Below are positions 3,996 to 61,203 of a stretch of DNA of 64,000 nucleotides, in pieces (within the stretch, counting starts at the first letter, position 1; every line of letters begins with the position of its first letter). Position numbers and translations under genes: made by a program. The DNA is taken from assembly GCA_002633005.1 (NCBI GenBank), contig NMRA01000059.1:1079133-1143132 (forward strand). Direction: 5' to 3'. The notes under the pieces are model-generated. The model had not been told where the DNA came from. It made no database searches and saw only the letters and a program-made list of their open reading frames with translations. The DNA comes from Phoronis australis. Taxonomy: Eukaryota > Animalia > Phoronida.

Positions 3996-4022
3996 TAACA
4001 ATATTTGCCATTGTCATTGCAG

Positions 4023-10336: not shown

Positions 10337-10778
10337 CAAGGCTTGGAATTTTCCGCGGAAACGCTTTTTGAAATGTTCTGTCCGCGTATTTTATTATATT
10401 TCCGCGTAAAAAATCGGATTTGATATAAAATTTCCTTGGCAAATTTCTTTCTTACTGCGGCGTTGCTGACGACTTTCACCTCGAAAAGCGGAAGTTGCTC
10501 TTTATGTTTCGAAGGAACGTAAATTGTCAACATTGCCGGTGCATCTGGGATAGCGTGGTGGATTTCTTCAATGACGACTCGTGTGATTGTAAACCACAGT
10601 GACAAATACTGCGGCTCTGCAGCCAAAAATGTGTGGAGGTGGGAGTGGCGGACGAGCTAAAAAGTCCTCCCGATTTTTGTCGGCAAAAGGTCCACATCGA
10701 CTATTTCAAGGCCGGGTGCGCGCATGTTTTGGGCCATAAAAAATTCCGCTTTTTTGTCATTGGTCATTCCAAGCCCCG
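10337..10778. mobile_element. Diverged, internally deleted copy of the same MITE (independent insertion)
   Basis: caaggcttggaat...attccaagccccg, flanked by direct repeat attcca at 10331-10336 and 10779-10784. Confidence 0.85.
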
Positions 10779-15422: not shown

Positions 15423-15675
15423 NNNNNNNNNNNNNNNNNNNNNNNNNNNNNNNNNNNNNNNNNNNNNNNNNNNNNNNNNNNNNNNNNNNNNNNNNNNNNN
15501 NNNNNNNNNNNNNNNNNNNNNNNNNNNNNNNNNNNNNNNNNNNNNNNNNNNNNNNNNNNNNNNNNNNNNNNNNNNNNNNNNNNNNNNNNNNNNNNNNNNN
15601 NNNNNNNNNNNNNNNNNNNNNNNNNNNNNNNNNNNNNNNNNNNNNNNNNNNNNNNNNNNNNNNNNNNNNNNNNNN
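15423..15675. other. Assembly gap (N run)
   Basis: Run of n characters. Confidence 1.
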
Positions 15676-31641: not shown

Positions 31642-31821
31642 GAATGGGTCTGCTTCCCATGGCAGGGATCAGAATGGGTCTGCTTCCCATGGCAGGGATC
31701 AGAATGGGTCTGCTTCCCATGGCAGGGATCAGAATGGGTCTGCTTCCCATGGCAGGGATCAGAATGGGTCTGCTTCCCATGGCAGGGATCAGAATGGGTC
31801 TGCTTCCCATGGCAGGGATCA
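31642..31821. repeat. 30-bp minisatellite, 6 identical copies
   Basis: gaatgggtctgcttcccatggcagggatca. Confidence 0.97.
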
Positions 31822-32883
31822 GTTTTGAAAACTGTGGGTGTGGATGAGTTGACCCACACTACCACAAGTGTTAAAACCAATTTGGAGAACCTATGAGCCG
31901 TGTTATTTTTGGTCTTTTTTGGTTTCGCTAGTCCTGCTGGCATTAATTCAATTTCTGAACAAACCGTCATTTAAGATGCCCACTCACGATATTTCAAAAA
32001 AAAATCATTTTAAACAAGCACGCTAACTTTAACACTCACCATTCGAGCATCATGGGAGTTTAACCCCCCTCCCCCCATTATTCAATAGGTTCTTTATAGA
32101 TTATGCATGATGTTGAGTTTCAAAGGAATCCTGCTAATTAGTGGATTTATGTGGTTGTCTAACTTGTGGACACCTGGTTGGAGAGTCACTGTTAGAGTCA
32201 CCATGTTCCCAAAATAGAAGCAGTGAGTTAATGGTCTCCTTGTGTTTAAACACCCTCTGTTGTTTCATGTCAGATTTTCTTAAGTTCACACATGCCTTTA
32301 ATTAATGTTCCTTAATTGTGCCAAAGGACATGTTTGCCTGAGTTTAAACAGTTTACAATAGGTAGTGATGGAAGGGAGACAGTGTCAGCAGTTATTAATT
32401 ATTCCTGTTGGTGGCACTTCCCAAGTCCTGTTGGTATTTGTTTGGTGTTGGTATGGTCAGTTCCACCAAAGGAAAGGTCCTCCAGCCAGAAAAGTTTTGT
32501 GATGACACTTCACAAGTCAACCCTGTGTGTGGGCCCTGATTATTGAACATGAATTAATTGGGAACACACACTGCTGAGACACTGATGTAACATTACACCC
32601 AGAACTAACATTGGTCTGTTGAGAGGCATGGCCCTTGTGCCCCATGGTATTGAATGGGAATATCAAGACTGATCATTGGATCTTTGACGGGTTAAGATGT
32701 TGTTTAATGTTTTAGAGGATAACTTGTTGACGTTACTAACCAGAAAATAAATAAAGTTCAATAAATTTTCAATGGTTTTGAGAGTAGTGTCTGAGTAAAT
32801 TAATACAAAATCAAATTTCACGGCTAAAAGGGAGGTTGGTATCATGATGACGGTTATTCTGTAAATAGATTGTACCTTTTTAA

Positions 32884-33230: not shown

Positions 33231-33807
33231 TTAAATATTTGTGTTTTGTGTTTGTTGACAATTTGTAGACGTAATAAATGATTGTCTTCCTGAGGCTATC
33301 AACTTCCTGAATCAGTTCATCCTGCTCGTTCACTGTTCTTTTTTCATCCCACAGCGCTTCACTTGTTTATCACAATATTTTTGCTTATTATCTAGGCACA
33401 CATTTAAATTGACGCTCCATTTGGCCAGAATCTGACATGTCAACAAATGAACTAGTCAAATTAAATGAACCAGTTTGGTGTGAACTTCAAATATGTTTTG
33501 ACAAAGATGGTTCGAAATTCATCCCCTCATTGGTGAAGTTGACCATGCTGTTTTTCTTCTTAAGGTATTCATTGCTTAATGTTCACTCAGTGCCCTGGGC
33601 GTATCCAGTACAGTTGATGTCAGAGGTCAGCTTTGCTTGTATTTCTATACTAGGACATCACTGTAAATAGAAGAGGAATTGGTTACAATCATGGCAGTCA
33701 TATCCACATGATTTGCAACTTGGACTATTGTAGCAGCAGTGAGATCTGTAGAAATACAACTTCCCTTAAATTTTCTTTTAATTGAAACAAATGTGTGAGT
33801 CGAAATT

Positions 33808-34062
33808 GACATTTTCCGTTTTCAAACGCTCACTGTGTTGCTAAATGTTGAGAATTTCGACATTTTCTGTTTTCAAACGCTCACTGTGTTGCTAAATGTT
33901 GAGAATTTCGACATTTTCCGTTTTCAAACGCTCACTGTGTTGCTAAATGTTGAGAATTTCAACATTTTCCGTTTTCAAACGCTCACTGTGTTGCTAAATG
34001 TTGAGAATTTCGACATTTTCCGTTTTCAAACGCTCACTGTGTTGCTAAATGTTGATAATTTC
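33808..34062. repeat. 51-bp minisatellite, 5 copies
   Basis: gacattttccgttttcaaacgctcactgtgttgctaaatgttgagaatttc. Confidence 0.95.
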
Positions 34063-36198
34063 GCCATGTATTTCTTACAAAATTTGATCATGTTATTGAT
34101 ATCGTTGTTTTGCGTTTATGTACCTTTCTTTTCTGCAAAATTTTACTATAAAGACATGATCTTATTACCCAATTGATGACAGATCAAACATCCACTTTCA
34201 GAAAATATATACTAATTACTAAGTTAAAATCGATGGCTTTTTAGGTGTGTGTCTAAATACAAACGTGTTGGTATGGTCCTACATAAACTTGGATGTTTTA
34301 GCAATATCAAGTTCCTGGTGTAAGCTGAACACATTTTTAAGCTAAGTTGTTTTACCCAAAACGTTGTCACTAGAACGTTTTAGCTCAAACATTTTAAATT
34401 TATCCTCTTGTGAATCCAGCTTTTAATGCTGTATAGAAATGCACAGCGTAATGAATATCCTCAAGGTTTTTCAATTAATTCTCTGGGCGTAAACCAGCTT
34501 CATGCACAGGAAAGGAAATTCAGAGTTCTCACTTTCAGCCTCTGGATGAGTTTTTCATATTGGTAACATTTCCGTGTAACGTAGCCTGTTCAAAACACAG
34601 CCTGAGGCCATTTTAAATAACATACATTTGAATTGAAATAAATGCAAACATGTCTAACACAAATCATGTTCTAATTTAACTGTAATAAAACTGCTCAACT
34701 CTTCTCAATTAGTAAAATTTGTTTTATTGAACAGGTTTTGTAAGTTCTGTTATTAAAACAATACAATGCCTGTTTTAGATATGTTCTTGAAAACAGTAAA
34801 TTACCCATAATTCACTCAGCGTGCTGCCATTTTTTGAATAAACAGGTTTAGGTAATTTGATATTTCCTGCGCTTGCTTTAATCTGTTATTTAATTTAGAA
34901 CACAGTTTGTGTTACATATGGCGTGTAATAGCCCCAGTCAGTTTCAAGAAATTACAAGTTGTAATTGAAATCTCAATGCCTGAGCAAATCATTTCACGAA
35001 CATTGGGTTAGAGAATATGAACTATGTGAGGCTGTGCTCAGCTCATCTGTATAGGGCAATTAGTGTCTTACTTATTTCAGACAAACATAATTGTTAAAAG
35101 TACACATTTTTCACTTTTCAAGGGCTTCTACCGTTGTGAATGCCCTCATTTTTTAAAAATATTTCCTGTTTGTAGCTACGTACACTGAGACTTAATGTAG
35201 CAAAGCATCATTCTGTTACTGCATATCATTTGTGAAAAAACGAGAAAATAAAGTTTGATCCGTCTTCCAAATTCAGTCCTTAATTCACTAGGTACTGTAC
35301 TACAGGTCGAACAACAATTTTCCATTTATATGTAATCTCGCTCTAAAACAACCTAAGTCAAAAAAGTTTGTTTGTGTTATTTTCACCATAAATATGAAGA
35401 ACATGTCAAAAATTATCTCTTTTGGCTTTGTGTTGACTGAGAGGGGAATCTTGACTCTTCTCTTTATAAAGAATGGCGCTTTTTAGTTTTTGTCTCCCAG
35501 GCTTGGTAATGATTTGCTGTTGCTCTCAATCTCAATCCAGAGCCAATTTGAAAAGAAATCTCACTGTACACCTGTTGTGTCATGCCTGTCATAGTTCTGT
35601 TTATTTTTAGTTAAAATAATTTAAATGTGTCCAACATAGCTTTCTGTTCTTTATTCCAGTATGGCCTACTTGTCAGGGTTAACACCCAGGGGGCTAAATT
35701 GGGGAAGTAAAAAATTAGAGGGAGCGTGAAGCTGAAAATCATGATATGGGTCTATTGGAAAGGTTGATTTGGTTAAATACCCAGAAAGGTATATTTTCGT
35801 CAAATAAAATGCAGTAGCAGTCTGATGAAAGGTAGTCCGTGAGTTCTACTCCATATAAGGCAAAATGTCGATGTTCAGTACAAAAATGTAGGCGAATTTA
35901 GTACCTTTTTGGGAAGCTTAAATTTGAGTGTGGGATGGTTTTACAAACAAGCACTTTCAAGGAAGCCTCTATAACATAAATTGGGGTGGATATTCAGTTG
36001 GACAAAGGCGTTTATGATTGTGAATTTTTGGAAATTTCAGGGTTGGGCATTTAAACCCAATATTTGCATGGACCTTTGTTTTAGTTTTTATGCCTCATAT
36101 TCAATTTTTGTGCATGTACTGATTTTCGAGTGGTTATTTTCAGTCAATTTGTTATGAAAAATGTGTTCTTGTGAAAACTTGTGCTGTTCTATTTCTAG

Positions 36199-36300
36199 GT
36201 GAACAAAATGGACATGAAGATGGATCAAATAATGTTTATGTTGAACACAATCATGAAGCAGAAGACAGTGAATGAAGATTCAAAAGAAGATGCCGTCTGA
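36199..36300 (+). CDS. KCNQ1: KCNQ1 last coding exon, helix D coiled coil and stop
   Basis: gctgttctatttctag| then VNKMDMKMDQIMFMLNTIMKQKTVNEDSKEDAV-TGA. Phase 0 joins IEDK; the heptad pattern matches human VTQLDQRLALITDMLHQLL. Confidence 0.9.
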   Translation: MNKMDMKMDQIMFMLNTIMKQKTVNEDSKEDAV

Positions 36301-41600: not shown

Positions 41601-42243
41601 CCATTCTGGCGACACTTTGCTGGAGAAATTGTAGGTCATCAGATTAATTTTGTAAAAAAAAACAGCACAGTTTGAAATTGAAGCGGTCATTAAGTGCAAA
41701 TTGAGACCCTGGATGGGTAGCACTTTTCATACCTGCATAGTATAAAGTCTCGAGAGCCCGACATTTGCAATTAAGGGTTAAGTTAAATATGGCCAAATTT
41801 TCCAAGACGTTTGACACTAGTGCAAAAACACGGGACGAGCAGCCAATGACTCACGGATGACTCACAGTTGCATGTCGTCTGACAAGAGTGACGCAAAGGG
41901 TCACGAGTGAAGTGCTTATGACAGTTGTTAAAGAAATTTAAGTGTTGTGTTATCTATTTCAATACGAGCTCCCTGGGGCTAGAATTTGCATCCAATTGAA
42001 AATACGAGATGTCATTCTCGAAAGACACAAATAAAATTTTGCCAATGGGACATGCATCGTACAATTCGCGTGAGCAACTAAAATACAGCCAGTTGAATAC
42101 TTGAAAAACATTCTCCTAATAAAAAGCTTGTGGTTTTTAAATGACAGACTTCAGTTTGCAAGGTTTGTTGCCTGAAAATCATTGAAGGGTAAAAAACATT
42201 TGACTTGTTTATTTTTTAATGATCCAGTGGTGCAGTGTTTTCA

Positions 42244-42484
42244 GGGGCCCGTTCCAACAAAACTGACTTAGCTAAGACAAATCCTAAATTTTAGTAAATT
42301 TTAAAATAAAAGTTAAATTCGTCTCAAACCAATTCAAGAAAGAGATCTTAAGTTTGAATTAACTGTGTGACGTAAGTTTTGTCTTTAATTTCATTAACTA
42401 ACAGAATGTGGAAGTTCGGAATTTAAGACAAATCTTAAACTTAAGTAAAAAATGAACTTAAGTCAGTTTCTTGGAACAGGCCTC
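42244..42484. mobile_element. MITE with ~27-bp imperfect TIRs (Harbinger-like)
   Basis: ggggcccgttccaacaaaactgactta ... taagtcagtttcttggaacaggcctc; AT-rich interior with cttaag subrepeats. Confidence 0.75.
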
Positions 42485-43444
42485 AGTTCTTCATTTTTTT
42501 TCTAAAATCTTCCTGCTTCATTGTTGCAGTGCTCTGTTCAGCGTCTACCGCCCTCCGTGCTGCCAAAGAAACAACAATATCTTAGTTGTTACCTTGGTGT
42601 TCAATCAGCCAAGATCACGGACGGGAAGCGGAGTGCCGCGGGACCTTGTCGCTTCCTTTAGTTTCACACCGTGGCAATCGCGGGCGTGCATTTGTGGCCA
42701 CTCTGAGCTCAAGCCAATCCGTCGCGTTACGTGCATATCTCCCAACGAACTCATTGCCCTCGTTTTTGGACTGCATCGTTTCGCAGTGCACTAGATTGGA
42801 GCTGTTACATTCACAAGAACCTACAAAGCTCTGTTGGCCCGACCAGACGCTCTGGTCGGGCCAACAGAGGCGATGGTCATTGCCTACTACAAAGCTATAT
42901 CATATCTTCCCGTGTACATGTTTCGAATAGGGTACTGAAACGTATAATTTCTTCGTCTAAAGTGGGGTCAAATACAAAGTTCTAGGGCCATTTATTTTGT
43001 TGTCTCGGACGTTGACCGACTGAACAATGGCGAAATGCAATTAAATCGTAATGCATTCTTTCCTTATGTCCGTAGCGTGCGTAGATGGTACTGTTGTCAA
43101 TGACTGGGGGTGTTTTATTGTAACTGTACAAATGTTCAGTAGACCATTAACCGAGGGGGCATTGTACTTATTTGGTAAGTTTTGGTTTTGAATATACAAA
43201 ACTTTGAGACGTAATTGTTACCAAGTTGGGCGTGAAATGAATTTTTTATGGTAATGTACAATTCTGTATAAGCGCACAGTACCCGTAGTGAGAACCAAAT
43301 ACTATTTTTTGTCGCTAATCTGCAACAGGGCATTGCCCGGATAACAGGGTAATTTATCAAGTTCACGATTTACGTCGAGTTCGTATTTGTAAACATCATT
43401 GTGTTGTGATTTGGCGGGAAAATCCGGGGGTGTGTCAGGGTTAA

Positions 43445-43682
43445 AGGTAACGTACTACGTTGTAAACAGCGGTGCTTTTTCAGCGAAGCGGGCATTGTCC
43501 CGAAGACATTATATTTGTAGTTTTTGAAAGTATTTAGGTAGGAAATTCTGGGATTGCCTCAACATTGAATATAACGACATGTCAATCCCTCTCCAGCTTA
43601 AACCATCTTTAATCTGATGAGATTAAGTAGTCCAAACCAAAAGTTAGTATTTTTTGACAGAAGACGTACGTTTGCTACCCCT
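43445..43682. mobile_element. Possible Kolobok-like MITE remnant
   Basis: TTAA|aggtaacgtac ... gtacgtttgctacccct|TTAA; TIR imperfect. Confidence 0.35.
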
Positions 43683-45244
43683 TTAAATAAAAGAATGGCC
43701 GCAGGCGAACGTGTCTATAGTTTATCACAGGACTGTGGTTTCATTACTTGTAATTTATGAGTTTCCAAATTACTGTTCTTTATTCAAACAAAAGTTAGTG
43801 TTTGATAGAGTGTTTGGTTCCGTTGCCGTATACAGTTACATTTCTTGGTTTGCTTGTAGCGCTATGTATGTAGTCACAGATATTTATGTAACTGCATTTT
43901 CTTCTGAAATATTTTTGTTTACCGACATCAATACACATTACACTCTTGTTATACCTACACGCCCTGTCGTCTAGTGTTGTTCACTGGTAAGGTCGCAGTA
44001 GAGGCTGTCTCCCAGACTGTATGTATTTACCGTGCCTACCTGGGCTACTCAAGTTGTTGCTCCCATTTTACCTCTTCTAGTTTTGGGGCGTGACATGGTT
44101 CCCTGAGCTGTAATCGAAGATATTTCTGAAAAAGAAATAGAAATACCTAAGTTGTAGTGCCCGGTGCCGCGAGAAAAACTGACAGAAATACACCGAGTCG
44201 AAGGAATTCAGTTTGTATTAACTCGTAATCTTAGACTCTAAGATAATACTCGGTTTCTCCTTGGTTAAACATAACGGACTGCATTACTCGCGTGTCGTGC
44301 GCCTACGTAGCGTGCCTCGCTAATGGCATAGTACATGCACTAAGGGTCAGCGACCGGTGGATTCTTATGTTACGTTATTTTGTTGACTAAATATTGACTC
44401 TAAAGAACAGTCTGTGAGATGGTTCAGAGCAAGATTTATTCGTAAATGATTCCGTGCTTGCGTAAGGGCGGAGCTGTAGTAAATCGGCTGCGAGCGTTGG
44501 ACTTGATACGTCCAAAATTTCAGCCTTGTGTGAAAAACTTTTTAGCTGTGTCAGATACATTCGATGGGGATTTTTAAATGGAAAATATCGCCGCTTAACT
44601 GCATTTTTGTTGTGAAAATATATGCCGTTAATAAACTGCTAACGGAAACTAATGAGGTATTTTATATTAATTTTATTCACACACAGTAAGCTAGACCGTT
44701 CATTACCTAACAATTCACAAAATTCACGTCTTCCTAACTTATCCCAGAATGATATGCAAAATGATTTCTGTTTAATTAACAGTTAATGGTGCTTTTCATT
44801 CTGCTGGCTAAAATCGAAACTCGAATTGGGCCTTTTGCGCTCATAAAATCGGTATCATAATATTGCTTACCATGATTATAGTCCCGTTTCCAACAGGAAC
44901 ACCAAAACCATCAGTGACTAAAGAAAATGTTTCAGGAATTTATTGGGGTTGGGAAACCCTAAAATTGCTAAAGTTTGAAAATGGCACATGCACCCATGTC
45001 TTTGGCTTGTTGTCGTGGCAACAATTCAAAACATTGGGATGAGTGTGCAAAGTGTTGTTAAACTGCGTCGAATAACAATTCAACATTGACTACTAAACAG
45101 CGGCGAAATGCAGCTTTATTGAATTAAATCTTTATCAAGTGTTTACTACGCTCTCTGAATCAGCGGACTGGCTGCACCAACTAAAAAAAGCCTACGGTTT
45201 ACGTACAGTTCAACGAATCGCGACCACGACTCCTTGAAAATGAT

Positions 45245-45790
45245 TGACTGGCCACTTGAGAACTATTTTGCTAGCTGTTGACCATTTGATGAGCTTGTCA
45301 CGAAACTCCAGAAACAAAAGTCACGAGCGTATGACGTCACGACTCAATTACGATTTTGTTGCCGATAAAAATCGTTTCGTATGGCTCAGTGGCGACTAAG
45401 TCGCAAGTTATCGGGCCATATCAAACATGTTCGATCGAGCGAAGTCTTACTGGGCCTTGTTGTTTCGTGCGAGTTTGATGGCGATTATTCGTCGTGACCG
45501 AACGAAGTCAAAATTGACCAATATTATTTCAGATTCTTGATAAATGAAAGCTCTGGAGCGTGGCAGCAAATGACCAACGCTCGAGCTGAAGATGGCAATG
45601 AAGAATGCCGTAATGGTACACGCTAAACCAAGCCGCTGTGTATCGTGTGCGGCACATCTTGTCGCCGATAACATGAGACCTCTCGATAAAAAATCCTATC
45701 GTTTTGTGATTCTCACCCCTACTGGCCTACACGCGCGTGGACGTCACTGCGTCACATGATGCTCGTAAAGATTCCTCAAGTCTCTACGAG
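45245..45790. mobile_element. CpG-rich probable DNA-transposon remnant
   Basis: CpG-dense block with repeated tcacga/tcgt motifs and catatcaaacatgttcgat; termini not resolved. Confidence 0.35.
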
Positions 45791-47529
45791 TCCTTCCAGA
45801 TCGACTAACGAGTTTCTGGATTAGTCGTCGATTGTTCCCACAACATTAACATTCAAAATTGTAAATCAGTTTTCCAATTCCTCTATCACAGAACATATAT
45901 TTAGCTTATCATATCACTGATTCAATGAGCTGATGACGTGTGGTTGAGATGGAAAGCTATATAGTTATGTAACAAAATTGTCACGGCGTTAGTTGAAACC
46001 AGATAGCATGTTCTTTCAAGCTGCTATGAACGTTATTTTTCTTTGTAAAAAATTGTACTATCGAGTTACGAAGTCAGATATCGACTCACGGAGTAACTGT
46101 GGTCAGATTTGAACGGGTTGTTGGCTGGAACACTGTAGACATGTGTCTTAGTGGTGCAGTGACTTTCATCTTTCAAGTTAAAAAATAAATATTATTTTCA
46201 CATTTTGCTAACAACGACATATGCTGACAGAAGATTGACTGATTGACATGTTGTGACAGCATTACAAGGCAATCCATTTAACTCGCCACATCATATTAGA
46301 TTACCGTCAAAATTCAATTGCAAAGTAAACACAAGGCATAAACAAATATCCGGACGACGCACCCCCCAGTGATACACATGCATTGGAACACTAGTTTTTT
46401 ATTTGACTTGTCTGTGCGAGTCATGTGTCCCTCTGTATGAATATTTTGCCATCAATTTCAGCTTAATTTCTTGTGCTTGGTTCCAGCTTCAAGCCAAGTC
46501 AAATCAGACCGGACCGTTGTGGACCTTGACTTGTACATGCTAGACAAAACTTCGGGTTACGACCCGCAAGCGATTTTTACCATTTTCCTAGCTACCTGCA
46601 GGTGATATCAAGGGAAAACTTCTTTCCACCATGTTGGATAAACCAACAAGTTTGCCTCAGCGTTGCTGAGAACGTTAAGGTTTTTTTAGAAATGAAATGC
46701 GTACGTGTACAGCTTGAATTCAATATCACTTACGCAAACGGCATAGGATATTCGTTGGATGTCGCCGTGTTTTCAGAGGTTTATGTCGATGTCTCGAATT
46801 CTTGACTGTAGCCTGGCTTATTCGAACAACCAGACAGGCTTCTTGTTTTAAGTGAAAAACGGACGGAAATCCACAAATGCTTTCCTTTTACAGAAATAAA
46901 AACCGTGGGAGTGCGTGATAAGTGGCGGTTCTTCACGAAAAGGCACAGATACTTTTGCGTAGTCTGTGTGCTGGCAAAAACGTTCAGTTAACGTGTACTC
47001 TGGGAGTCGTTTGTTACTCTAAAGAATAATGGACAGTGGACACGGGTGACCCCCAGCTAATGAACTGCAGGTCGAACAGCTCATCATATATTCAACCCAC
47101 ATCCCTTGACTTGTTCTCGGCGTAAATTTGAAGCTTCAATTCCAATATCTTAATTCATGCGGGTCGCCTGCTTTAAAACTGCACCTGCAATCGTGTTTCT
47201 TACACCTGTTCTATGGTTCCAATTCATTGGCAATTGGATTTCAATGCGTCTATTGTGAACTCGTGTTTTAAATTTCAAATCAGTCCAGAAGCTCCCTCGA
47301 GCCATACATATGCGACCACCTGGCATTTGTCAACTATTACAAATGCATGGTTAGATTTATGCCAGGGGGCAGAGATATACACTACACTTCTATAATTTCC
47401 AGCTCTTAAAAGAGACACAAAAAACATGGAGTTCAGTAATGTCCATACTTTACTCTGTACATTTTACCTTCAACAAGATTACTCTTCACAAACCAAAGAT
47501 TTGTGGGACTTAATATGTTTGTACATAAC

Positions 47530-47581: not shown

Positions 47582-50238
47582 TGTGTTCATGAGATCAGCC
47601 CAAAATGGACATAGTTTACATGTATAATGACTATACAACTACAGCACAGCGTTAACTCCTAAGGGGTCACTTAAAATCAGTAATGAGGGCTTAATCCAAT
47701 CTAAAATGAATTTTGCCCACTACATGTCAATCAGCTACTGGCCCTTTAGGGAACTAACAACTGCACAGGGTATACCTAAAGAAAATTAGACTTGTGAAAT
47801 ATACAAAGAAATATATTAAGGACCAAATATATCACAATTAGATTAACCATACACATTTTAGAACTTTGGCAATGTACAATAATCAGATTAAATCTTCAGT
47901 GCTCATGATTTTAATAAAATATCTAACTATATAATGCTATGGCTGTTTTCAAACCAGGTGATGTTGGTAATGATATTGATAATCTAGAAACCACCACAAA
48001 ATTACTAACTTTAAAGTATATGTACGTGAGATCAAGGTAGATTAACATATCCATGCCCAGGCACCACAATCCGTGCCCAGGCACCCCAATCCGTGCCCAG
48101 GCACCCCAATCCGTGCCCAGGCACCTCAATCCATGCCCAGGCACCTCAAGCACCTCAACTGTAATTTGTATTTAATCTATAATACTTAGAAAGAATTTGA
48201 GACCATATCTGAGTGCTGTTTTTGGCATTTCGATGTTTCTGCTTTAAGTTTCAAGACTTCGCAATTTCTGACAAGAATACCAGAAATCTAACAAAAGAGA
48301 CAATTAATTAAATACACCAATGAGACAACAATGTTACAAACGAAAGCTTCACAAACTGAATGTTACATAATACAAAACATAAACTTTCTAACCACAAACA
48401 TGTTTTCGACAAAAAATAAGTAATAATAAATAATCCAGAAAAAATATATGTACAAAGGTCAAGGCAAAATAATCACAAAAGAGCATAAACTGCTAATTAC
48501 AAAATGCATAAAGCATGCAAGCACATATACAACTGTTAACGGTTTAAGTTATGCTGGCTAATTATTGTATACACATTAAATGGTATTGCCAGACCACCAT
48601 AATGCGGTAGAGTCAGTGCAGGCATTCACAACAGTACAGAAATCTCATAACTACAAAGCAAGTTAGCATCACACTATATTACAAAATTGACATTACAACT
48701 ATTTACAAACCGGTTTCCAGACCCTGTAGAAGGAGAAATATCCCCAATATTTACACTACAGTTTGTCCAGCACACAACCTCAGTAGAGAGAAGCGAAGGC
48801 TTAAACTAGTTGGTCACAAACTCAAGCAATCTCAGGGCTGGATCCAGAGGGGCCAAAGCATTCAAACCCTCACACTCTGCCACTTGTGTGTGGCTGTCAT
48901 GGAGGAAAGTGAATCCCATCTATGCTGTCCATAGTGGAACCCCCGTCTGGTCACGAACCAGGATCTGAGCTTGTAGTCCCATTACAAAGGAACAATGTCA
49001 TATATGCAACACAACCAAATATGCAGTTTACACGACACCACTGACAAAAGTGCAAACCGACGTCGAGCAAAATAATCCAACAACCCTCTGTAAACGTACA
49101 AAGCTTGACATGGAGCAAACAGACCCACTTTGTTACTTTGTTACCAGGTTTGAGGCAAGTCAGATTACCGCGAGTCATCTAATAAGGTAACCGTTGCTTT
49201 ACCAAACACAAAGTTATAATAGTGCGAGGAGAAAATATCTCAGCTGTGCTAATAATCCGTGTTAATTAAAACATTATTCGGAGATATCATGCCGGCACAT
49301 AGCAGTTTTTGATAGAGCACTTCTGCCTTGCCCCACTTTCTACATAAGCCGTGCAGACAGATGCGTACACCGATCATATTGTGCTGGGGCAGTTTGCGCC
49401 ATTTCAACAATATCATCTAAATGCACCATGAATGCAAGAGGCAACTAGTTTTTATAAGAATGAGATCAGGTATAGCACACCTTTCTACCACTCATATGCC
49501 ACAGTTTCAAAAGATGTGCCAGCAGCCCAATTAAGTTTCGACAGCATCAAAACTTTTTGAGCAAATTGCACTTACAATAAGTATCAAACATTCCTCATTA
49601 GCTCACGAGACAAAAAATATTAAAAGACATAATAATTTCAATTTCAATTCAAATGGAAATTTCAAAAGTTTCAAAAGCTGCATCATGTCTACAATAAAAG
49701 CTGAAAGTGAACAGTGCACAAAAATAATCCGTCAATTAGAATAAATTAAACAAAATGTGAAACAGGCTTCTTTCAATAACCATCATTGGCAACACATGCG
49801 AGACAAGTGACCATCAGTTGCTATATATGGTCACACCAAAACAGAAGCGACACCACGTTTAGAATTTCCTTACAACATCTAGCACCAGATACTTTCTAAT
49901 CTGGCTGTCAGCTTATAGCCAGGTTGTCCTTGTTGGCAACCCCACAGTTGAAAGGCCATATCACTTGTGATTGGCTGGCCAAGAAGGTCTGTTAAACTTC
50001 CAACTGTTTGTGGGCTTGGCTCTCAGGTGGTGTACCCTGGTCTAATTAGGACCGCCTTATCAAAACACAGTTTGTCCATTACTCCAGTTTCTGGACACAA
50101 ACCTGGGCAACATCTGTGTTTTAGGCAGGCAGGTTACCACTGGCTCAGCCACTGGCTAGTTTAGGAGCTGGCAATTAGAGTTGTGAGGATGTCAGGAACC
50201 TTCTGTTTGATGGAGATGGACCTGTGATAGTGCTCACT
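47560..50238 (-). other. CDKN1: Non-coding terminal exon (3' UTR) of the CKI gene
   Basis: Perfect donor G|GTAAGT 4 nt after the stop (intron starts 55201). Strong acceptor atttcttttgtttcctttgtag| at 50239/50238. AATAAA on - at 47581-47576 with a U-rich downstream tract. AU-rich, with Pumilio elements and miRNA seed matches. Confidence 0.75.
48049..48160. repeat. 20-bp minisatellite, ~5 copies, in the CKI 3' UTR
   Basis: atccgtgcccaggcacccca; each unit contains the mini-palindrome gtgcc-ca-ggcac. Confidence 0.9.
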
Positions 50239-53200
50239 CTACAAAGGAAACAAAAGAAATATAATTAATTAAACAACACTTATTTTCAGCATGTATGGCA
50301 ATCAAAACGTCATACCATACACACAAATACTGTTTCTGGCCACAGCCAGTTTACATAAACTTTGTAAATTATCAATGAACATGGACATATTTGCCACACA
50401 TGTGAACCAACATATGGTACTGTAGACATTCCATATGGAACACAGATCAGTGACAACTTGTCAACATCTGAGACTCATAAAAATCTGCCTCATTGTCAGA
50501 CTGAACAAATAAGCAGTTGTTTTCAATTTAACCCATAAGACTTCTTTAAGATCCAATGTGCTCCTGGCGTTTATCAGTTTTTTAGCCTTCATACCAGTAT
50601 ACCGTTTCCTGACACTAAAATTGTTAACACACTTCCTATGTTTTCCACTGTTATGAATCTCAACCGCCATCTCAACTTTCAAAGATAGTTTACCCAATTA
50701 CATAATTATGCTTACACTTCATTTATAGTTTAGTGCCAAAACCTCAAAAATTTGTGAACCACAATAGGATAGCCAAGAAAATACCAATATGATAATTTTC
50801 TCACCAAATTAGTGAATAATTTGACCGAAAAATGTAATTTTATTTAAAGAAAATTACCTTTGTTAGTGGCATGAGGCCATGTCAAAAAACAACGCAGAAA
50901 AAACAAATTTCAACAAAAAAATTTGAACTTACTATCCTCACATCACGATTTATATTTTGAAAATGTAAAAAAATTGGTAGCTTCCATTAAATTACTGTAA
51001 TTTGTCATTAATTAGTTGCTTGTAAGTCAACAAGTTTTGAATAATTGCCTCATAAATTCATGAGCATGAGATTCTAATTAATTCAAGTGATATGTTAATT
51101 GGACAACAGAATCGCCTGCCACCAAATATCATTAAACCATAAACTATTCAAAGTTATGATGCTGTGGTAGTGAATGATATGTCCAGCTATGTAAAGAATT
51201 CAGGATAATAACACAGGATCTTGTGCCAAACATTCTTTCCTCCAAAGGCTAGGACAAAGCTGGATAACTCAGTATCAATATTTACTTTGAGCTTGTTATA
51301 ACACTAATAGCCCATTGTCTATGGAACATAGTTATCTAAACAAATTGAACTATCTATAACACATAGTCATTCTATAAGCTTTGTGAGTAGTGCTTCCAAA
51401 CAGTTTTGAGTAGACAGCCAACAACAACAGAATACAACAGAAATGTTTAGCATTCACCCTTTTGGTAGATGAGCAATAACACATTCATTACAATAAAAAC
51501 ATAAAACAATCGCAGACAATGGACTGGGAGTTAAAACATTCCGAGACATTCCGTGGAATTTATTGGAAAAGCTTGCCCGAGTGAGACAAAGCGAAATTAA
51601 TAGGGAATGATATCAACAGTAGGGACATGCCCAGAACTGTTTCATGGTCTGAAGGTGTTTATGTTTTCATATTCGCCTAATGCTGCCTGGGCCTGCCACA
51701 ACTGTATTCAGGCCTAAGCACGCTAAAACACAGTCAATTATGCCCTTTTCAACCTCTATTGACTGCTTTTGAATGGCTGTGAGGGGCAATAGTTATTCAG
51801 CGCTAGGCGTAAATGACCTATTAATATCAAAAGCCGCAACAGAATTAATAACAAACCCGAGCAGGCTGCGTCATTCAGTGGGAGTTTCCAAGTGATTTTT
51901 ATAACTACTCAATTATTGCGTACACAATGAAACCAAACAAGAACCAACTTATTACAATTGCATTTATGCCTGCAAGCTACATTAAAGTGGTTAGACAGAA
52001 TCCAAACCGCTAATGCATAACTAACACTAACAGCCTATACTAATTAGTCAATAAAAAGAAAATGGGATCCATTTCATTGTTAACATAACGAGCAAAACTG
52101 GTTACCATCAAAGGACTAATTTGTAACTGCCATTCACGCAGATACATAACCAAACTGCCAGAGTTTTGTTAGACTCCAAACTTTATCATAGAAAAATCTC
52201 ACAGCTGTGACATCCAGCGAATACCCAAACTTATTAAGATTTTGGCCATGGTTCAAATTCTATCACAGACATGTGACACAGGACAAAAGCTCTACCCAGG
52301 TAGAAATGAACGCTTCAAAACACACACTGGGTCAATGCAGACAGCCATTTAGAGACTGGACCCCTGCCTGGCAGTGTTCCAACAATAGGTACATGTCAAC
52401 ACTGGCGTATACCAGCATTGCTATGTAACCAATAGCAACACACCTGGAGACCAATGGTACTAGGAAAAAAGGGGGGAATACCTGCAGTGGAACAATAGCT
52501 ACTCATAGTACCCTCTTTGCTACGTCCTTATACAAGGAACTTGGTTTAAATATCAACAGTAAGTTAAAAAGTTCATGCACTACCTGTGTATGGTGTTTGC
52601 ACAATACCTATTCCTGTGCACAAACAGGCAGAATAGAAAAGGGCGCCAAATACTGAGAATGACGACACACTGAAGATAACATTAACACCAAATGTATTTA
52701 ACTGCTGATAAATCATGAACAATGTTATTTACCCCCTGAAAATACAGAACCGTGCACACTGTATTATAAAAGATAGAGAGAAATTTTTCTAAAAATAATT
52801 GCATTAATCAAGTACGTGAGAGATTTGGAAACCACAGGGGGTCACAGGTGAATGCATTAAATAAAGCAACCGACATGGTTACCACCTGACAACTTCCGCT
52901 CGATTTGACAAGTAGTCAAAAACATCACTGGATCGCTGTTTGCTTAATTTGTGTTAAAATTAACGATTCAAGATAACATTTATTTCTACAACAAAACAAA
53001 AAAGATGGTTGTACTTGGAATGATTTTCTGCAATAGTTCTCAGACATAGAAATCTTCAAATGCACCAGCATCACATGCCTTTCATTCGGAATTAGTTACG
53101 AAATTCTTTATAATCACAAGCACAAACATGGCTTGGAGTTCATTGAACGCTGAAAAACCTAACACAAGTCAAACACCTCAACTAGATACAACAGCTGACC

Positions 53201-55205
53201 ATCAATGCAGGCTGTGTGAACGACCAGCGATCTCCAACTCGTCAAAAATGTTGTGTTTACTAAGTAAACAAAAAGAAATGGTCTTCAGCAACACTGGTTC
53301 TTGAAATTGCACAACGTTTCTGTCAGGTAAATCACAATTCATTATTTCCAAAGAAGACTGAAGACAAATAAATAAAAACTAAGTCAATACTTGAGAGCAC
53401 AGTGACACATATGACTGGCTACTATTGGTCAGTGGATCAAGTCACTGAACCCTACTGGCAGTGTTGAATATATATGCGAATACATAATATTACCACTTCA
53501 TGAGAAAAAGAGCAAAATCTGGCCATTGACCCCGACAGGCTATCCTTATCTTACATCATGCTACCAAGGCTTATGGAAACCCCCAGGTACAGAATTAAAA
53601 ACAAACTAGTTCAATTGAGAGTTTAATCGCCCTTTGAGAGTAGAAAAGGTAGTGCAAGCACAGCATTTCTAATTCACCTATATAGTAGAATAGCTTTTGT
53701 CACCTTTGTGAAAATGTATCAGAATGGATAAAACAGCCTTTATGTTGTATTTCCTTGTGTAAATAAACACAAGGCCAGAGGGGAAATTCTGGAACATGAG
53801 AAATTGACATCCCGGGTGTAAGTTAACTTCATAGCCATAGAGTTAATAAATTAACAACTCGAAATGATGCACTTCAGAATGCAATGAAGATTCATTATTT
53901 GGTAAAAACTACCAAAATACTTATAGATTTTCAAAAATATTTTGCATTTAGTTTCCACAAAAGAAGAATAGCAAAAAAATCACAAACTCCAGATTTTCTG
54001 GCCACACATTCATAAAATAGTTAATCAATTGAAGCATAAGTAGTAATTAACTGAACAAGCAAATGATGAGTACCCTATAGTCTAGTCAGAACCAATTTCT
54101 AATTATCTTCCACCACCAGTCCTGCTGCTCAAGTTACCACAAACTGTCCTTCACTCCAATCAAACCAACTCAATGCCTGGTCATAAAAAAAGTAAACCCA
54201 TCTCTTTGCATTGACTAATCTATTAATCTTAGCGTCAGCTGTTATCGTTATTTTGACTGGGGGAGTCACGGAGTCTCTCCAGTGACATATAGTTCAACAA
54301 CGAGACAATACTAATTTGTTACCATGAACTCTGCAACAATGAAGCCTGGACTTTCATCTCCCTTAGGTTTCAGTCCATTTCAGATAACCTCAGTGAACTT
54401 GTAGAAAATATCAGGGCTACCTCAGAGATAACAAAAAGTGACTGCAATGGGCTGGGGTTAGCACTCTATCAAAACCTGTCATTATATCCCAGGAAAACAA
54501 TTCAATAATAGCCAAAATGGGAAATTTATCCAACAGCTGATGTCGTGACGTCATTCTGGAGGGCATAAATGCATGTATGTGGCTGATTGATTTTTCACAT
54601 ACAGTTGATAGTCATAGTAAGAGGGGATCAGTGTAAGTAATGATGGCCTGGAGGAGTCTATAAACAAATGGGATTTCCTAAGTGTCAAGAGTTCATGATA
54701 AGTAGTACATGCCAAGCACATAAATTCAACATAATTTTCATAATTTAAGATACTCCACGATACGCTGGTGCATCAAATTATGTACTTGTTTTTTTGATAT
54801 AATTCTCGGTCAAAAGTTCACCACTATTTTTAACACCAGAAAGGAACAAATTGAGATTGCTAGTTAAATGCCATGACGAAAGAGTTCTACAACATCAGAC
54901 AAAAAATGACTAAGAAGCCTTGAGTCGATATCACCACAGTGAAAATCGTACAAAGGAAAAATAAATATTTTTAAAATTAATGAAAAAACTACAAAACTAA
55001 AATTTCCCAGGCCACCAAATTTAACCCCTGAGCTAGAACGAAGCTAACTTTTGCACAACGATCAATCCAAAGGCAATCAGCCCTTCACTCGACAGGCTAG
55101 ATTTTACCTCACTCAAATGAAACTTCTCAATACAGTTGTATCCAACTTTGCAGGCTTTGCTGTATTTTATTCAGCTTCTCAATAGACTGTTATGTACTTA
55201 CCACA

Positions 55206-55330
55206 CTATGTGGTCCTGTGGGGTAACGACTGCGAGGATGAGGTTTGCACAGGCGACAGTGTTCGTGTCTTACTTGGCGGCGAATCAGTTTTGTTGGCAG
55301 ATGTTTTTCTCTTTTTCTTCTTCATAAAAT
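55206..55330 (-). CDS. CDKN1: Cip/Kip CDK inhibitor coding exon 2 (PIP degron end, NLS, QT-like tail)
   Basis: aatgttttag|AT completes Asp: (D)FMKKKKRKTSANKTDSPPSKTRTLSPVQTSSSQSLPHRTT-TAG. The spliced junction reads QAPITDFMKKKKRK, like p21 QTSMTDFYHSKRR. Total CDS 498 nt = 165 aa plus stop. Confidence 0.92.
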
Positions 55331-56516
55331 CTAAAACATTACTAACAGTTATACACAGGAGCCCACAAATTGGACAAAAACTAAGCAAGAGACATGACTG
55401 CAAAGACACACTGCACTGGGATTTGTACAAATAACAACTTGATCAAACCAGATGACATTTAAATAAAGCAATGCTGTTGCATGCTTTTGACCTGTAAATC
55501 TTATGCATCACACTTCAAACACAGTGCAAACTGTACTTGACAAAGCCATTTTACACTAATCAAATACCAGAGTTAGGCAACTGTCCCAAGAAATGAACAA
55601 ATGGGCAATTAGTTCACTTCTATCAATAGTTTCGGCACTGCTCTGCAGCAAAACATTTTTCAAATGTCACTAAGCTTTTCTCAACAGATACCATGTTGAT
55701 CTGATATGCTGTCACCAATGATTTTCTGCACCACTTCACTTCAGGCCTGTTGCAGGGCCAAGCAATGACCAATCACCTACACCATATAATTACCCTCTTC
55801 AGCAAACAGAATGAACAACTGTTCAGATTCTTAACACTCAACTGATTACCACATAATGGTCTTGAATTTTAGTGGTGCCTTCCTTACAGTCAAGCAATCT
55901 AGCTAACACAAACACAACAATTCAAGATTTTGTCTGCAGGAAACATGGGTAGAGGAAAGTTACCTGTCGAGAATCCTGTCATTTTTCAACTGCATTCTGG
56001 GATGGTGATATCACATTCAACTTTTGTAATTTGCATTTGAGTGGTGAGATTGCATGACTGGATGGGCAGGCCTTGAAAATTTCTGTGTAAAAGATTTGCC
56101 AATATACATTACATTTAAAAGTTCTATGCATTTTGAGGCTGGCTTTCAATTTTTTAAATTTTATACGTAATGATTGCTTTGTCATGATCGCAAAAAAAGC
56201 ATGTTGCAGTGGAACCATACTTTCAATTCAGGTGCGCTCAAGCAACAAGTGTTACATCCAGTCACACTGTTTACACCTCACCATGTTGTATGTACTCTCA
56301 CTGGATGATACAGCTGACAACCATTCCACAAGGCATTTGAAAAGAGACAAGATTATATCCCTTCAATATTGACACCAGTTGGTTTGCACTTTTTGGGCAT
56401 TCATTACCAATGGCCAGTACATATTAACCATACTGAGAATACTACAGTACTATTTTCTTAGTGTCTTATGTCATCTGATGCCTGTGTTCAATATACATGA
56501 TTGATGGTCCACGACA

Positions 56517-56616
56517 CAGGTCAGTGCTGATGCATGGCCAGGGACAGGGTAGTGTACACACTCAGGTCAGTGCTGATGCATGGCCAGGGACAGGGTAGTG
56601 TACACACTCCAGGTCA
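56517..56616. repeat. 46-bp tandem duplication in CKI intron 1
   Basis: caggtcagtgctgatgcatggccagggacagggtagtgtacacact twice. Confidence 0.85.
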
Positions 56617-58354
56617 TGAGTGACTCAAGTGTTCACCTTCAGAGTGGACAATGTAACAACAGAAAGATGGTGCCTATTGAATAATTGCAAAGGAGTGTTC
56701 CCTGGATTCCTTACACCTTCTCCTCCAATCACTACACACTCCTCTAGCAAAAATAATGTATTACAACTGATCCCATGGGGTGATTTCATGGCCTAGATAC
56801 ACACAAATCAAGTCCTATCATGATGTCATGTCAGTTAGGTTAGTAACAGCACATATTGACACTTGACATTTACTTGCTCAGTTAAAACACCAGTTCACTC
56901 AAATGAAGTTCTATATTACCTTGTTCTTGAAAATTTCTGCTCATTATAGTTAAAAGGGTGAAAATCAGGCAGATTTTTAGCCTGTTGCCAAGGACTGACA
57001 AGCGCTTGTTGGACAAGAGCCAAACAAGAGCAGTAAGCCTTGAATGGTAACCTAATTTGCCATTTAAGCCTTGCCACACAACCAAATGTGGCTTGCCCTA
57101 GCTAGGCTATCTAATCAGAACTGTTTTCAACATTAATTGCGTAATGGAGACCCGGTGTCAACGTACTATCGTTCACAAAGATATCCATCTGCTCCAATCG
57201 CACTTGTTCCCTACCAACGGACTTAATCTTATAATTCAGAGGCAGCTTAAACAATGGCCTTTCACCTTTACAAGAGGTACTCTACTAATGAACTCCTACT
57301 GATAGATAGTTTAAATGAAAACTAGGTGAAGGTGTAATTAATTTATCACAACATCTGTCAGTGTGACAAGGCACTGGTCAATAACCTATAACTCCTTGCG
57401 GGGTGTTGTCCTTTGCAAGTTAAATGTTACTATTACATGACACTTGGACAAACAAAGACCTCTAAAAGCAATATCAATCAATCGGCTATTTATATGAAAT
57501 AAGCAGCAAACTTAGTCGTATTCCAATAGAAATCTGTGTGAGCCAAGGGCCAACATCTGCTTGTGAAAAATCCAAAATGTAGGTAATTCAATAGAACAAT
57601 GGCTATAAAACAAAGACGAAAATAGTAAATGACTCCAAAAGAATCAAAAATCCCACAAAGGCAAGCTTCTTTGTTGATCTGGATGTGTTATTTATGAAGG
57701 TAAACGCATACAACTCAAAATATCAATTACTTCGATTTAAAGCCTCATCATTAAAAACCATGCTTTTGGAAAGTAAAATTTTGTTTTATTTCTTAGGGTG
57801 GCTAATTAGCATTCCTAATTAGATATAAAGCCATGTAACCAATGCAATTAACGATAAGCAGTACTTCAACCAATCAAAGCCAAAACTTTGATTATAGCAT
57901 TTACATTGGCTTCAAACACAAGACAGGTGAAAAAACTTTTTTTCCAAGTGAGTCAAAATCAGGGTATAACAGTGGCATTGTAATAGACCATCATCATCGT
58001 TAAAGTTTAGAATAAATTTCATTTTCTTCATCTAAAATGTGTGGTACCTTAACAGCTTCACTGACACTTCAGTTAATCTGACCTTAAATGCAGTATTTAT
58101 CCCCAGGACAGCTCATGTAAACCAGTGCTTTATCACTAGAACAACCCTTGAAATCACTTGCTGAGTGATTGACAAAGGCTGACAAGCAAGGGATATGACA
58201 AGCAGAAGATTTGGATAAGTGCCAAAATCACTACTGTCCAGGTCATCAAAAGTGCACACATGACTGCTGGGCAGAGGCATGGAATGCTCACTGAACAACA
58301 CCTCTCACTATAGTCTACAATTGAACAAATCATTTAGATTAGTGATTCCGCGCA

Positions 58355-58374
58355 AAACATGTCCAAGCATGTCC
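58355..58374. promoter_or_regulatory. p53-family response element, perfect consensus, no spacer
   Basis: AAACATGTCC AAGCATGTCC = (RRRCWWGYYY)x2, both with CATG cores, in CKI intron 1. Confidence 0.8.
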
Positions 58375-58426
58375 AGGAACAATACGTGAAAAGTTGAACT
58401 GTTATCTGCTTATAACCAAAGTCTGC

Positions 58427-58446
58427 TGGCAAGCTTAGTCAAGTCT
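58427..58446. promoter_or_regulatory. Second p53-family response element (18/20)
   Basis: TGGCAAGCTT AGTCAAGTCT; both CWWG cores intact, no spacer, 52 bp from the perfect site. Confidence 0.55.
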
Positions 58447-59385
58447 GAAGCGAATGCTCAGGAAATTGGTACAGAATTGTTAAAAACACCTAATTCTATT
58501 AAGGTTTCACTGTCCAGATTAAAGAAAGTTTTTAGTCGTTTATATTCTATTGAAACGATATGAAACTACATGTTGAGTACTAGCACAGTACTAGTTAGAT
58601 CAGGTTGCAAGTGTAATCTTCATTATACAATACAATCTAGCAACAAATACGATGCACGTTTTTGCGTGGAAATGATTAGTCACAAAATCTACAGAAACTC
58701 AGTCATTCGCCCACGACAGAAACTAGCGTGGTATTACTTTTCGTTCAAATCGTGAATAAATAATTCATCCACAGGCCACCGAATTACTAACAGGTTTCAT
58801 ACTACAAAGTTGGAATACGTCGTAAATTCGCAAGTGTGATGTCAACATTCCCGTCACTCAATATCATTGTCACAAATCGGCAATAGTCACTTAGTCCCTG
58901 GCAGCCGATGGGATAGCGAGCATCGGTTTCAAACACAAAAGAACAAGCGTTGTTTCGCGATTCCTTAACTCTCATAATCTACAACCACTAAACCTAACTA
59001 TTGTAAAAAAATCACCAAGGTGGGTTTATTTACTTCAACTGTTTACGTGTTTACTTGATTGTAATATTCTAGCAGTCGTAGCAAAAAAAAATAAGAATCG
59101 CAAAAGTCCCGACTTGGCGTAGTAAACAAACAATAAAAAAATAATTCTCAATAATTTAATACCCTCCCATCATTTCGCAAATATTGCTCAACAAATTTTC
59201 AGCTTTTACACTATTTGGTTAAAACTTCACTTTACCTATCATTTAAAAAAACACAAATCTAACCGAATGAGTCAAGTAAAACTTCCTTATTATAAAAAGC
59301 AGCTCAAACAAACGAGCATCAACAAGACACAAGCTTACATCATATGACAACTAGGTCAAACAGCGTAGTAGGCAGAGATACGAAC

Positions 59386-59758
59386 CTGTAATAGGCGCTT
59401 GCCTCGTAGGCCTCGCACTAGGCTCAGGATCGTTTTTATCCTCAGGCTTATTATTTACAATAGTAGGTTCGTTCGTACTTCCAACAGGAACAAGATGTAT
59501 TCCAGTAGCGCCGTAGGCAGCTGGAACATTTGAGTTAGCGTCCACGGGCAGCCACTCGAATCTTCCCGGTTTGGGGATGCCCTTCTGGAAATCAAAATTC
59601 CAACGGTCCGCGGCAGCCTCTCTCTGCTTACTTATGTTTTCTTCTAACCATTGCTTTGTTTGGTCGTGATCTGGTCGGCCAAACAAGCACCGGCAGACGC
59701 CTTTTGATGGTGTGATACTCCTCGGCGTGTCGGACATCCTCTGCATAAGAGTTGGCAT
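59386..59758 (-). CDS. CDKN1: Cip/Kip CDK inhibitor (p21/p27/p57/dacapo family), coding exon 1
   Basis: First ATG at 59758 (the track start at 59773 is TTG, with an in-frame TGA at 59779-59777). Cyclin-binding CRCLFG, CDK-binding RWNFDFQKGIPKPGRFEW and VPAAY. Ends RQAPIT-G|gttcgt, phase 1. Confidence 0.95.
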
Positions 59759-59796
59759 ATTTTCAGATACCAACCCTCACGTCTCCAGATGAAATC

Positions 59797-59900
59797 ACTA
59801 ACCTATGTTATCACGGTGCAACAGCTTTTATGCCATAGCCTATCCAAATAAGGAAGCGTTGATCACGTGACTATATATTGAAACAATTTGATTGGTTGAA
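59797..59900 (-). promoter_or_regulatory. Candidate CKI core promoter
   Basis: On -: CCAAT at 59895-59891, extended E-box GTCACGTGAT at 59871-59862, TATA variant CATAAAAG at 59832-59825, and Inr-like TTAGT with its A at 59799 (~32 nt below the TATA, ~40 nt above the ATG). Confidence 0.5.
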
Positions 59901-61020
59901 GCTTTCCTCGGGCGTCAGCGAGACAAAGCGCTAAGCAGTCGATTAGACACCGACAACATCACAAAATTTGCAAGAAACGTGTCTTTACTTTTGAGAAAAT
60001 GTTTTTCAAAAGACTTAATGACTATAGTTTGAACGATACGACCACTATTGTTTTCTATACTCACTTTAATCCACGAAAACGTCCAATTTACCTTCTGGCT
60101 GTTAATAAATTCTCTGTAGGCGGAGCGTAGTTGACAGTTTGCCAACACACGCGACAGTCATTAGCATATCAAGGCCTGAATAGATTTGGTGGTAAACAAA
60201 TTCTATTATTACTATATACAACAAAAGCGTGTGTGTGTGTACGATATTGCACTCAGTCATGCCATGAGGGTTGTCGACAGCTGTCGCATTTACATCCAAT
60301 AAGACAATGTCAAAGTCGGTTCAAAGTGACTTATGCAAAATTTGCGAGGATTTTTGAATAATTTGAAGAGAGTCACATTCACGGGATGCTAAATACTTAG
60401 ATGTCATGACGATAGTCATTCAAAGCTACGATTACAAGAGTGTTTGGCAAATGAACCAGTAACACAGCAAGTGGTCGTATTAGTGGGCCTTGAACCCTGA
60501 GCCTTTTGAGCACGTAAGCTTGAGTCTTGTCTTGGTCACCGATTTTAATAATCTCAGTCCCCTGAACTGTTTTGTGGTTTGAGCATTAGTATAGAATAAT
60601 CAATGACACATGAACGTTCGTTTCAGTCAGCAAGAGTCTCGATTTGGAACGTGTCACAATTTCACGTTGAATTTTGGTCTGAACTTTGATTAAGGAATCT
60701 TACCGTCATAAAGCTATTTCTCCCTAGCTCAGAAATCAAATAGATGTTATAACGACATGCGGTCAAAAGTTAAGTTCCTTTTTATTCAAATTAGAAGGTG
60801 CATGGGAAATAATGGCAGTTGGTTTTTGCAGCGATTCCATGGTCTGTGTGAAGAATCATAGGCTTGCTGTGAGTCCCTGCAAGAAGTAACGAACTATCTC
60901 TTTTTCTCAAGTTCAGTTATCACTTCTAGTAATCTGAGACCAAGTTTATAACGCGAAGTGAGATAAATCTTAATTACTTTTTCACAGAAGGCGAGTTTCA
61001 TAGCAAACATGAGGGAAATG

Positions 61021-61203
61021 CATGGGCGCAGCATGCACTGAAATAAGTGGAGGGCTATAACCCCCCTGCCCCTTATATGGTGTCTAAGTGGAGGGCTATA
61101 TAACCCCCTGCCCCCTATATGGTGTCCATAGGCGATTCAGCACTGAAAAACTGGGGGCTATAGCCTCCCCCCCTCCCCCAGCCCCCTATGGTGCGTCGCC
61201 ACA
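61021..61203. mobile_element. Short GC-rich MITE-like fragments with an internal 41-bp duplication
   Basis: aagtggagggctata..acccc.ctgcccc.tatatggtgtc twice; related starts catgggcgcagcatgcactgaaa and cataggcgattcagcactgaaa. Confidence 0.45.

Follow-up and report, generated by a model that had tools for sequence, protein, structure and literature searches.

A CDK inhibitor (CKI) gene of the Cip/Kip family, located in the 64-kb stretch of DNA analysed here (the window), carries in its first intron two neighbouring sites that follow the canonical p53-family response element pattern, and does so above background frequency. Judged from its sequence, this candidate element is likely to be functional, and we lean slightly towards the reading that both sites form an intronic enhancer through which a p53/p63-like protein of the host would induce the CKI gene under stress. 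A p53-family tetramer of the host would bind site 1, site 2 would contribute a weaker additional site, and the bound protein would activate the CKI promoter, which lies 1.4 kb from it. The inhibitor, 165 aa long, would then bind cyclin-CDK by its CDI domain and PCNA by its PIP box, and the cell cycle would pause under stress. The candidate sites and a weaker match in the same intron are the following.

Site 1, 58355 to 58374, no strand assigned: 20/20 match to the p53-family response element, its two half-sites directly adjoining and each with a CATG core
Site 2, 58427 to 58446, no strand assigned: 18/20, CAAG cores, both C/G cores intact, no spacer
17/20 match, 57089 to 57108, no strand assigned: background level, excluded as evidence

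The whole window has been scored by consensus mismatches against two copies of RRRCWWGYYY, with the element definition and the zero-spacer and core criteria taken from PMC7735755 and PMC4937571. Allowing up to three mismatches, 20 matches have been obtained, which comprise one perfect, five two-mismatch and 14 three-mismatch sites, site 1 being the only one with zero mismatches. Sites 1 and 2 are 52 bp apart, and both retain the C/G at positions 4, 7, 14 and 17 with zero spacer. Site 2 agrees with site 1 at 9/20 bases in direct and 13/20 in reverse orientation, and by sequence comparison it is not derived as a copy of site 1. A previous sequence-only reading had reported the perfect zero-spacer site with CATG cores, the second site 52 bp off and their location in CKI intron 1, ~1.4 kb into the gene; coordinates and spacing agree with our scan, and the location is now fixed by spliced RNA reads, according to which site 1 is ~1.4 kb away from the transcript start and 1.0 kb inside intron 1, counted from the donor of exon 1. 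The 17/20 match, which had been mentioned as a weaker site, has to be dropped: it is one of the 14 three-mismatch matches, and since shuffled sequences give a mean of 18.7 matches (up to three mismatches) against the 20 observed, it is not significant.

For a perfect site, the per-position chance has been computed as 4.7e-8 under an order 0 model and up to 9.8e-8 under Markov models of orders 1-5, which gives 0.003-0.006 per 64 kb and is in line with the earlier hand estimate of ~0.003. A route via 10-bp tandem duplication contributes a further ~5.6e-8 per position, and with this route included a perfect site has a chance of 4.5e-4 in intron 1, rising to 1.9e-3 when the whole gene and 5 kb upstream are considered; in shuffles of 55331-60900 a perfect site has appeared in 2/3000. 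The chance of a second site of at least 18/20 with intact cores within 100 bp is 1.5e-3, so that the joint chance of both sites comes to 7e-7 (intron 1) or ~3e-6 (gene plus 5 kb upstream), values for which the second-site criterion is post hoc. Genome-wide, 24-49 perfect sites per 500 Mb are expected by chance, and site 1 has been selected after a scan of many windows, both of which count against the enhancer reading. For the gene locus, site 1 is far beyond what chance would give.

The gene that hosts the sites has been modelled from the RNA reads of three runs (X6, X7, X8) together with the contig set X5, and is organised as follows.

CKI exon 1, 59386 to 59786, minus strand: short 5' UTR; from the ATG at 59758 onwards 124 codons, which encode the CDI domain and the N-terminal half of the PIP box
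CKI intron 1, 55331 to 59385, minus strand: 4055 bp, phase 1 with GT-AG boundaries, interrupts the PIP box, contains sites 1 and 2
CKI exon 2, 55202 to 55330, minus strand: remainder of the PIP box, basic run, stop at 55206-55208
CKI intron 2, 50239 to 55201, minus strand: 4963 bp, within the 3' UTR
CKI exon 3, 47585 to 50238, minus strand: non-coding 3' UTR of ~2.65 kb

Spliced reads connect 59386 to 55330 (24, 25 and 149 junction reads in X6, X7 and X8, and also one X5 contig) and 55202 to 50238 (60, 51 and 225 junction reads), and the 5' ends of the transcript fall at ~59781-59788. The reading frame is intact over exons 1 and 2 and encodes a protein of 165 aa, whose CDI domain matches PF02234 with a Pfam E-value of 1.5e-17 (63.8 bits against a cut-off of 25); being expressed and spliced as well, the gene is a real Cip/Kip gene, as had been proposed. 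CKI RNA per million letters amounts to 0.56 in X6, 0.62 in X7 and 2.78 in X8, and intron depth is also higher in X8. This ~4.5-5-fold difference in exons and introns indicates that the CKI gene is regulated as such, and does not point specifically to p53. The position of the PIP-splitting intron (59385/55331) is old and common to many animal CKIs, since 36 of 150 homologues from genomic contigs display a read-through signature there against a shuffle mean of 0.8 (~2 of the 36 look spurious), and it provides a fixed landmark for cross-phylum comparison. In the 3' UTR (47583-50238), X5 diverges from the window by ~3% with many small gaps and X6-X8 are mostly at least 99% alike; a diverged population or a cryptic species under one label may be offered as a reading of the X5 divergence.

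The sequence-only reading had called the gene p21-like, which holds only loosely. A PIP box is a PCNA-binding motif with TD and a basic residue; in the window protein the box, with TD and a basic run, spans exons 1 and 2 and has Met at the second aromatic position. It is not diagnostic of p21, being matched in 6/7 named mollusc CKIs too. Against closeness to p21 stand the best PDB match of the exon 1 product, which is p27 (4e-11, p21 following with 2e-5), a neighbouring gene that is that of CDKN1C, and the domain tree (80 columns, 48 rows, rough support), in which the vertebrate p21+cdkn1d clade (96/91) leaves the window protein outside and the protein is unplaced. By its domain sequence, the gene does not qualify as a p21 orthologue. 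The ESM Atlas search has returned nothing beyond generic CDI clusters, and in a homologue search from the exon 1 sequence alone none of 23 candidates has passed. One Cdkn1 per species is given for the nemerteans, brachiopods, phoronids and bryozoans covered in Table S5 of PMC11555623, as far as that source is represented here, from which the window gene is likely the only Cip/Kip gene of its host and, we infer, a pro-orthologue of p21, p27 and p57.

Whether the sites belong to a repeat has been assessed in two whole-genome sets, X1 and X2. At 80% likeness, exactly one contig in each set spans 57400-59100, with no loose ends, which in the RNA runs do occur at repeats elsewhere in the window. 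The X1 and X2 contigs differ from the window at one and two positions, respectively, all outside the sites; as either set may be the source of the window DNA, conservation is not informed by this agreement, and the copy-number reading is unweakened. Neither inverted repeats bracketing the sites, nor a tandem array over site 1, nor a second match of intron 1 within the window has been found. The site region is not in a recent multicopy repeat, one of the circumstances that had been named as refuting the proposal, copies less than 80% alike being those that would escape this search. Over 58312-58539 the depth of X8 is nil and X5 is without coverage; as similar gaps occur nearby, the X8 gap carries no weight.

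Upstream in the window lies a KCNQ1-type gene, of which three exons are given here together with a compositional domain at the 5' end of the CKI gene.

KCNQ1 coding exon, 4021 to 4197, plus strand: conserved C-terminal helices
KCNQ1 coding exon, 4927 to 5031, plus strand: approximate bounds from tblastn
KCNQ1 last coding exon, 36199 to 36297, plus strand: bounds approximate, the CKI gene facing it tail-to-tail
CpG-retaining domain at the 5' end of the CKI gene, 58200 to 60000, no strand assigned: CpG o/e of 0.71-1.04 within 58-60 kb, compared with 0.10-0.59 within 47-58 kb

For two variable KCNQ1 exons, every named one among the best 28 homologues comes from a nemertean, mollusc, annelid, brachiopod or bryozoan (120 of 1899 matches examined); within these 120 the top score is 102 bits, arthropods follow from ~66 and a hemichordate is at 58. 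The host is thus a lophotrochozoan, which bears out the assumed setting outside vertebrates. None of the 49 ORFs of at least 55 aa in 36.3-47.6 kb reaches the Pfam cut-off, so that KCNQ1 and the CKI gene appear adjacent and tail-to-tail, small exons being able to escape such a search. Two candidates in 37-47 kb have been rejected as below the Pfam cut-off, Med31 (E 0.006), which is also without a Mediator match in the PDB, and DUF2225 (E 0.002). An Rfam search of the window has given 0 matches. Sites 1 and 2 occupy the inner edge of the CpG-retaining domain, beside the CpG-depleted gene body; from its composition the domain is presumably unmethylated, and the rise of CpG to promoter level at the sites fits an accessible 5' domain and lends weak support to the proposed enhancer. 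Between the two 3' ends lies another CpG-rich block (42000-47000, o/e 1.0-1.3). CRE-like motifs occur in it at about 45335 and 45740, a half-site with a perfect match to the p53 consensus is present at 45423, and at 44-47 kb the block is without transcript in the RNA runs except for short repeat matches; it may be an enhancer, a silent promoter or a young element. Repeats are frequent in the window (30 TRF arrays, 4339 bases): a KCNQ1 intron carries at 7300-10700 several near-identical units of ~270-300 bp alternating with a 27-bp tandem array, tandem arrays or exact short duplications occur at 14600-15750, 31600-31900, 33800-34100, 48049-48145, 56514-56605 and 61044-61126, and a duplicated 26-bp unit at 4523-4568 includes two 18/20 p53-like matches.

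That a p53-family protein could read such an element is suggested by several lines of published work. In human cells, functional p53 enhancers are marked by the zero-spacer canonical motif, binding is predicted chiefly by the motif, and just 19.8% of predicted sites are preferentially bound, a figure that refers to a looser set than site 1 (PMC4937571). The inner 14 bases of site 1 have been found, on one strand, in at least four human ChIP-supported 'primary p53+p63' elements (PMC7735755 supplement). Outside the vertebrates, nvp63 of Nematostella binds and activates the p53 consensus, with higher activity after UV (PMC1964547), annelid p53 homologues retain the DNA-contact residues (PMC8901663), and a p53-family protein with intact DNA contacts has been noted for molluscs as well.

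Four other readings have been weighed against the stress-responsive enhancer, and the likelihoods worded for all five are judgements, guided by the chance values and by the selection from a large scan. The sites may be functional in a p63/p73-type developmental, germline or stem-cell programme of cell-cycle exit instead of a damage checkpoint, which we regard as unlikely, though as the first of the four to be considered. The CKI gene sits beside KCNQ1, as does CDKN1C, which is reported to be controlled by p73/p63. Among the listed matches of the p63 table, as far as the supplement of PMC7735755 is represented here, CDKN1C has no row. The annelid homologues are nearer to p63/p73 (58%, 56%) than to p53 (47%) and are without the p53 cooperativity salt bridge (PMC8901663), invertebrate family members have been described as germline guardians (PMC3562299), and the human elements that match the site 1 core originate from p63 ChIP peaks (PMC7735755). 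Against a developmental role, it is p53-type binding that favours a perfect canonical site, p63 gaining little from a more canonical one (PMC7735755), and nvp63 activity on the consensus rises after UV (PMC1964547). Rather unlikely, too, is a neutral match, in which a half-site present by chance gave rise to site 1 through a 10-bp tandem duplication, site 2 being coincidental. The half-sites of site 1 are alike at 9/10 bases, 10-bp tandem similarity in the window is ~4 times that of shuffled sequence (1.8e-4 against 4.2e-5; five events including site 1), the window holds 20 perfect half-sites, other CKI-like loci are without enrichment, and the site emerged from many scanned windows. Yet even with duplication allowed for, the chance per locus stays at 1.9e-3, the unrelated site 2 asks for another 1.5e-3, and an origin by duplication is compatible with later function.

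The remaining two readings are weaker. Transposons carrying p53-type sites exist, and a relic of an old one might bind the protein without selection for control of the CKI gene; copies less than 80% alike would be missed here, but one contig in each of two whole-genome sets, no bracketing inverted repeats and no tandem array make such an origin improbable. Enhancers can skip genes, and the element might act on another target, be it KCNQ1 or some gene outside the window, or be read by another factor. The CpG-rich, untranscribed block at 42-47 kb could be taken to favour this, but only 1.4 kb separates the sites from the CKI promoter, that of KCNQ1 is to be sought ahead of the window and thus >58 kb off, and on the other side of the gene none of 21 ORFs in 59.9-64 kb matches Pfam, which leaves this the most improbable reading of all. 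Induction of the CKI gene by a host p53/p63-like protein under stress is accordingly the reading that we carry forward.

How old such control would be is a separate question. A metagenome scan with a 21-row alignment has yielded 41 CKI-like loci (28 clusters, 205,247 bases, every row being kept), none of them a close relative; measured from where the domain starts, 21/41 extend 1900 bases in the downstream direction and 10/41 extend 2300 upstream. With this partial coverage and with no p21 locus as positive control, 0/41 loci have shown a zero-spacer site that deviates from the consensus at one position or fewer, and two-mismatch sites with intact cores are present in 2/41 against a shuffle mean of 2.15. 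The lack of a strong site in all 41 counts against a universal, strong element, the power of this comparison being limited. No DNA similarity to the non-coding parts of the window has been found in the 41 loci, none of these short loci contains a KCNQ1 exon, and of the 14 loci taken into the domain tree none is placed with the window protein. In this tree L012 falls with fish p57, and L041, with a 31-aa frame, is unlikely to be a CKI. In several of the metagenome contig sets two clearly distinct Cip/Kip genes are present (for example L002/L023, L005/L024, L018/L035), which further limits the comparison and indicates that the family has expanded in some hosts, and some comparison copies seem to be without a PIP box in the first coding exon. 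The earlier proposal that the control is ancestral and was lost in ecdysozoans is not supported by these data, as it rests on one locus, 0/41 loci come within one mismatch and the CDKN1A elements are placed elsewhere. In its full form it would have a bilaterian ancestor whose one Cip/Kip gene adjoined KCNQ1 and was by then a direct target of the p53 family; upon vertebrate duplication p21 would have received the p53 link and p57 the KCNQ1 neighbourhood, the link would have disappeared in flies and worms, and both features would persist in the host. We consider this history possible but doubtful, and a separate gain, for example by 10-bp duplication of one half-site, is somewhat ahead of bilaterian inheritance.

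The neighbourhood itself has a known counterpart. A KCNQ1-type gene adjoins a Cip/Kip gene here as in the KCNQ1-CDKN1C (p57) region of vertebrates, where the human pair is, as we take it, likewise arranged tail-to-tail. The vertebrate neighbours have been described for mammals and chicken (PMC2427030), whereas the window pairing is lophotrochozoan; no report of an invertebrate KCNQ1-CKI pairing has been found in the parts of the literature searched, and the pairing may predate the protostome-deuterostome split.

There is work on p53 and cell-cycle genes in shrimp and clam, so that prior indirect reports of a p53-to-CKI link may exist. In the literature searched, outside which most subscription journals fall, no report of a direct invertebrate link has been found: one oyster study assumes it without testing (PMC4019545), and another oyster paper does not address it in the parts drawn on (PMC8490866). 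According to the common account, the invertebrate p53 family guards the germline by apoptosis, and somatic control arrived with vertebrate p53 (PMC3562299), an account that draws on flies and worms, animals with strongly diverged p53 proteins (PMC8901663, PMC5725765, PMC1964547). Drosophila, like the host, is a protostome with a Cip/Kip gene and has a single p53-family gene, but its dacapo is not regulated by Dmp53 (PMC5725765), which agrees with the earlier statement that dacapo is no direct p53 target, whereas the inhibitor in the window carries a canonical site cluster. In Nematostella, nvp63 resembles the proposed regulator as a non-vertebrate p53-family protein acting on the same consensus (PMC1964547), and Cdki1 of Hydractinia resembles the proposed target as a non-vertebrate Cip/Kip protein that is injury-induced and needed for senescence (bioRxiv 2022.09.02.506310); in the parts of these studies drawn on, neither ties a p53-family protein to an inhibitor gene. 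With a named, single-copy, top-grade site in a lophotrochozoan Cip/Kip gene, the question of a p53 brake becomes testable, and, if the reading is true, p53-family control of a CDK inhibitor would extend to protostomes and be either ancient or gained twice.

The closest likeness is to human CDKN1A (p21), another Cip/Kip gene with a zero-spacer element that has CATG cores, with several such sites in the one gene, and with a product that has a C-terminal PIP box, TD and basic run. The human counterpart of the PIP-splitting intron is presumably CDKN1A intron 2. According to the PMC7735755 supplement, the CDKN1A elements are located 2.2 and 1.3 kb upstream (-2.2 kb, -1.3 kb) and at +4.0 kb, and the window sites are at +1.4 kb; as the human elements lie outside the presumed matching intron, the window sites are not their positional homologues. 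In sequence, the -2.2 kb element agrees with site 1 at 15/19 printed bases (same supplement). The candidate switch would thus act like the p53-to-CDKN1A link, with a gene that is not p21 and an element that is differently placed.
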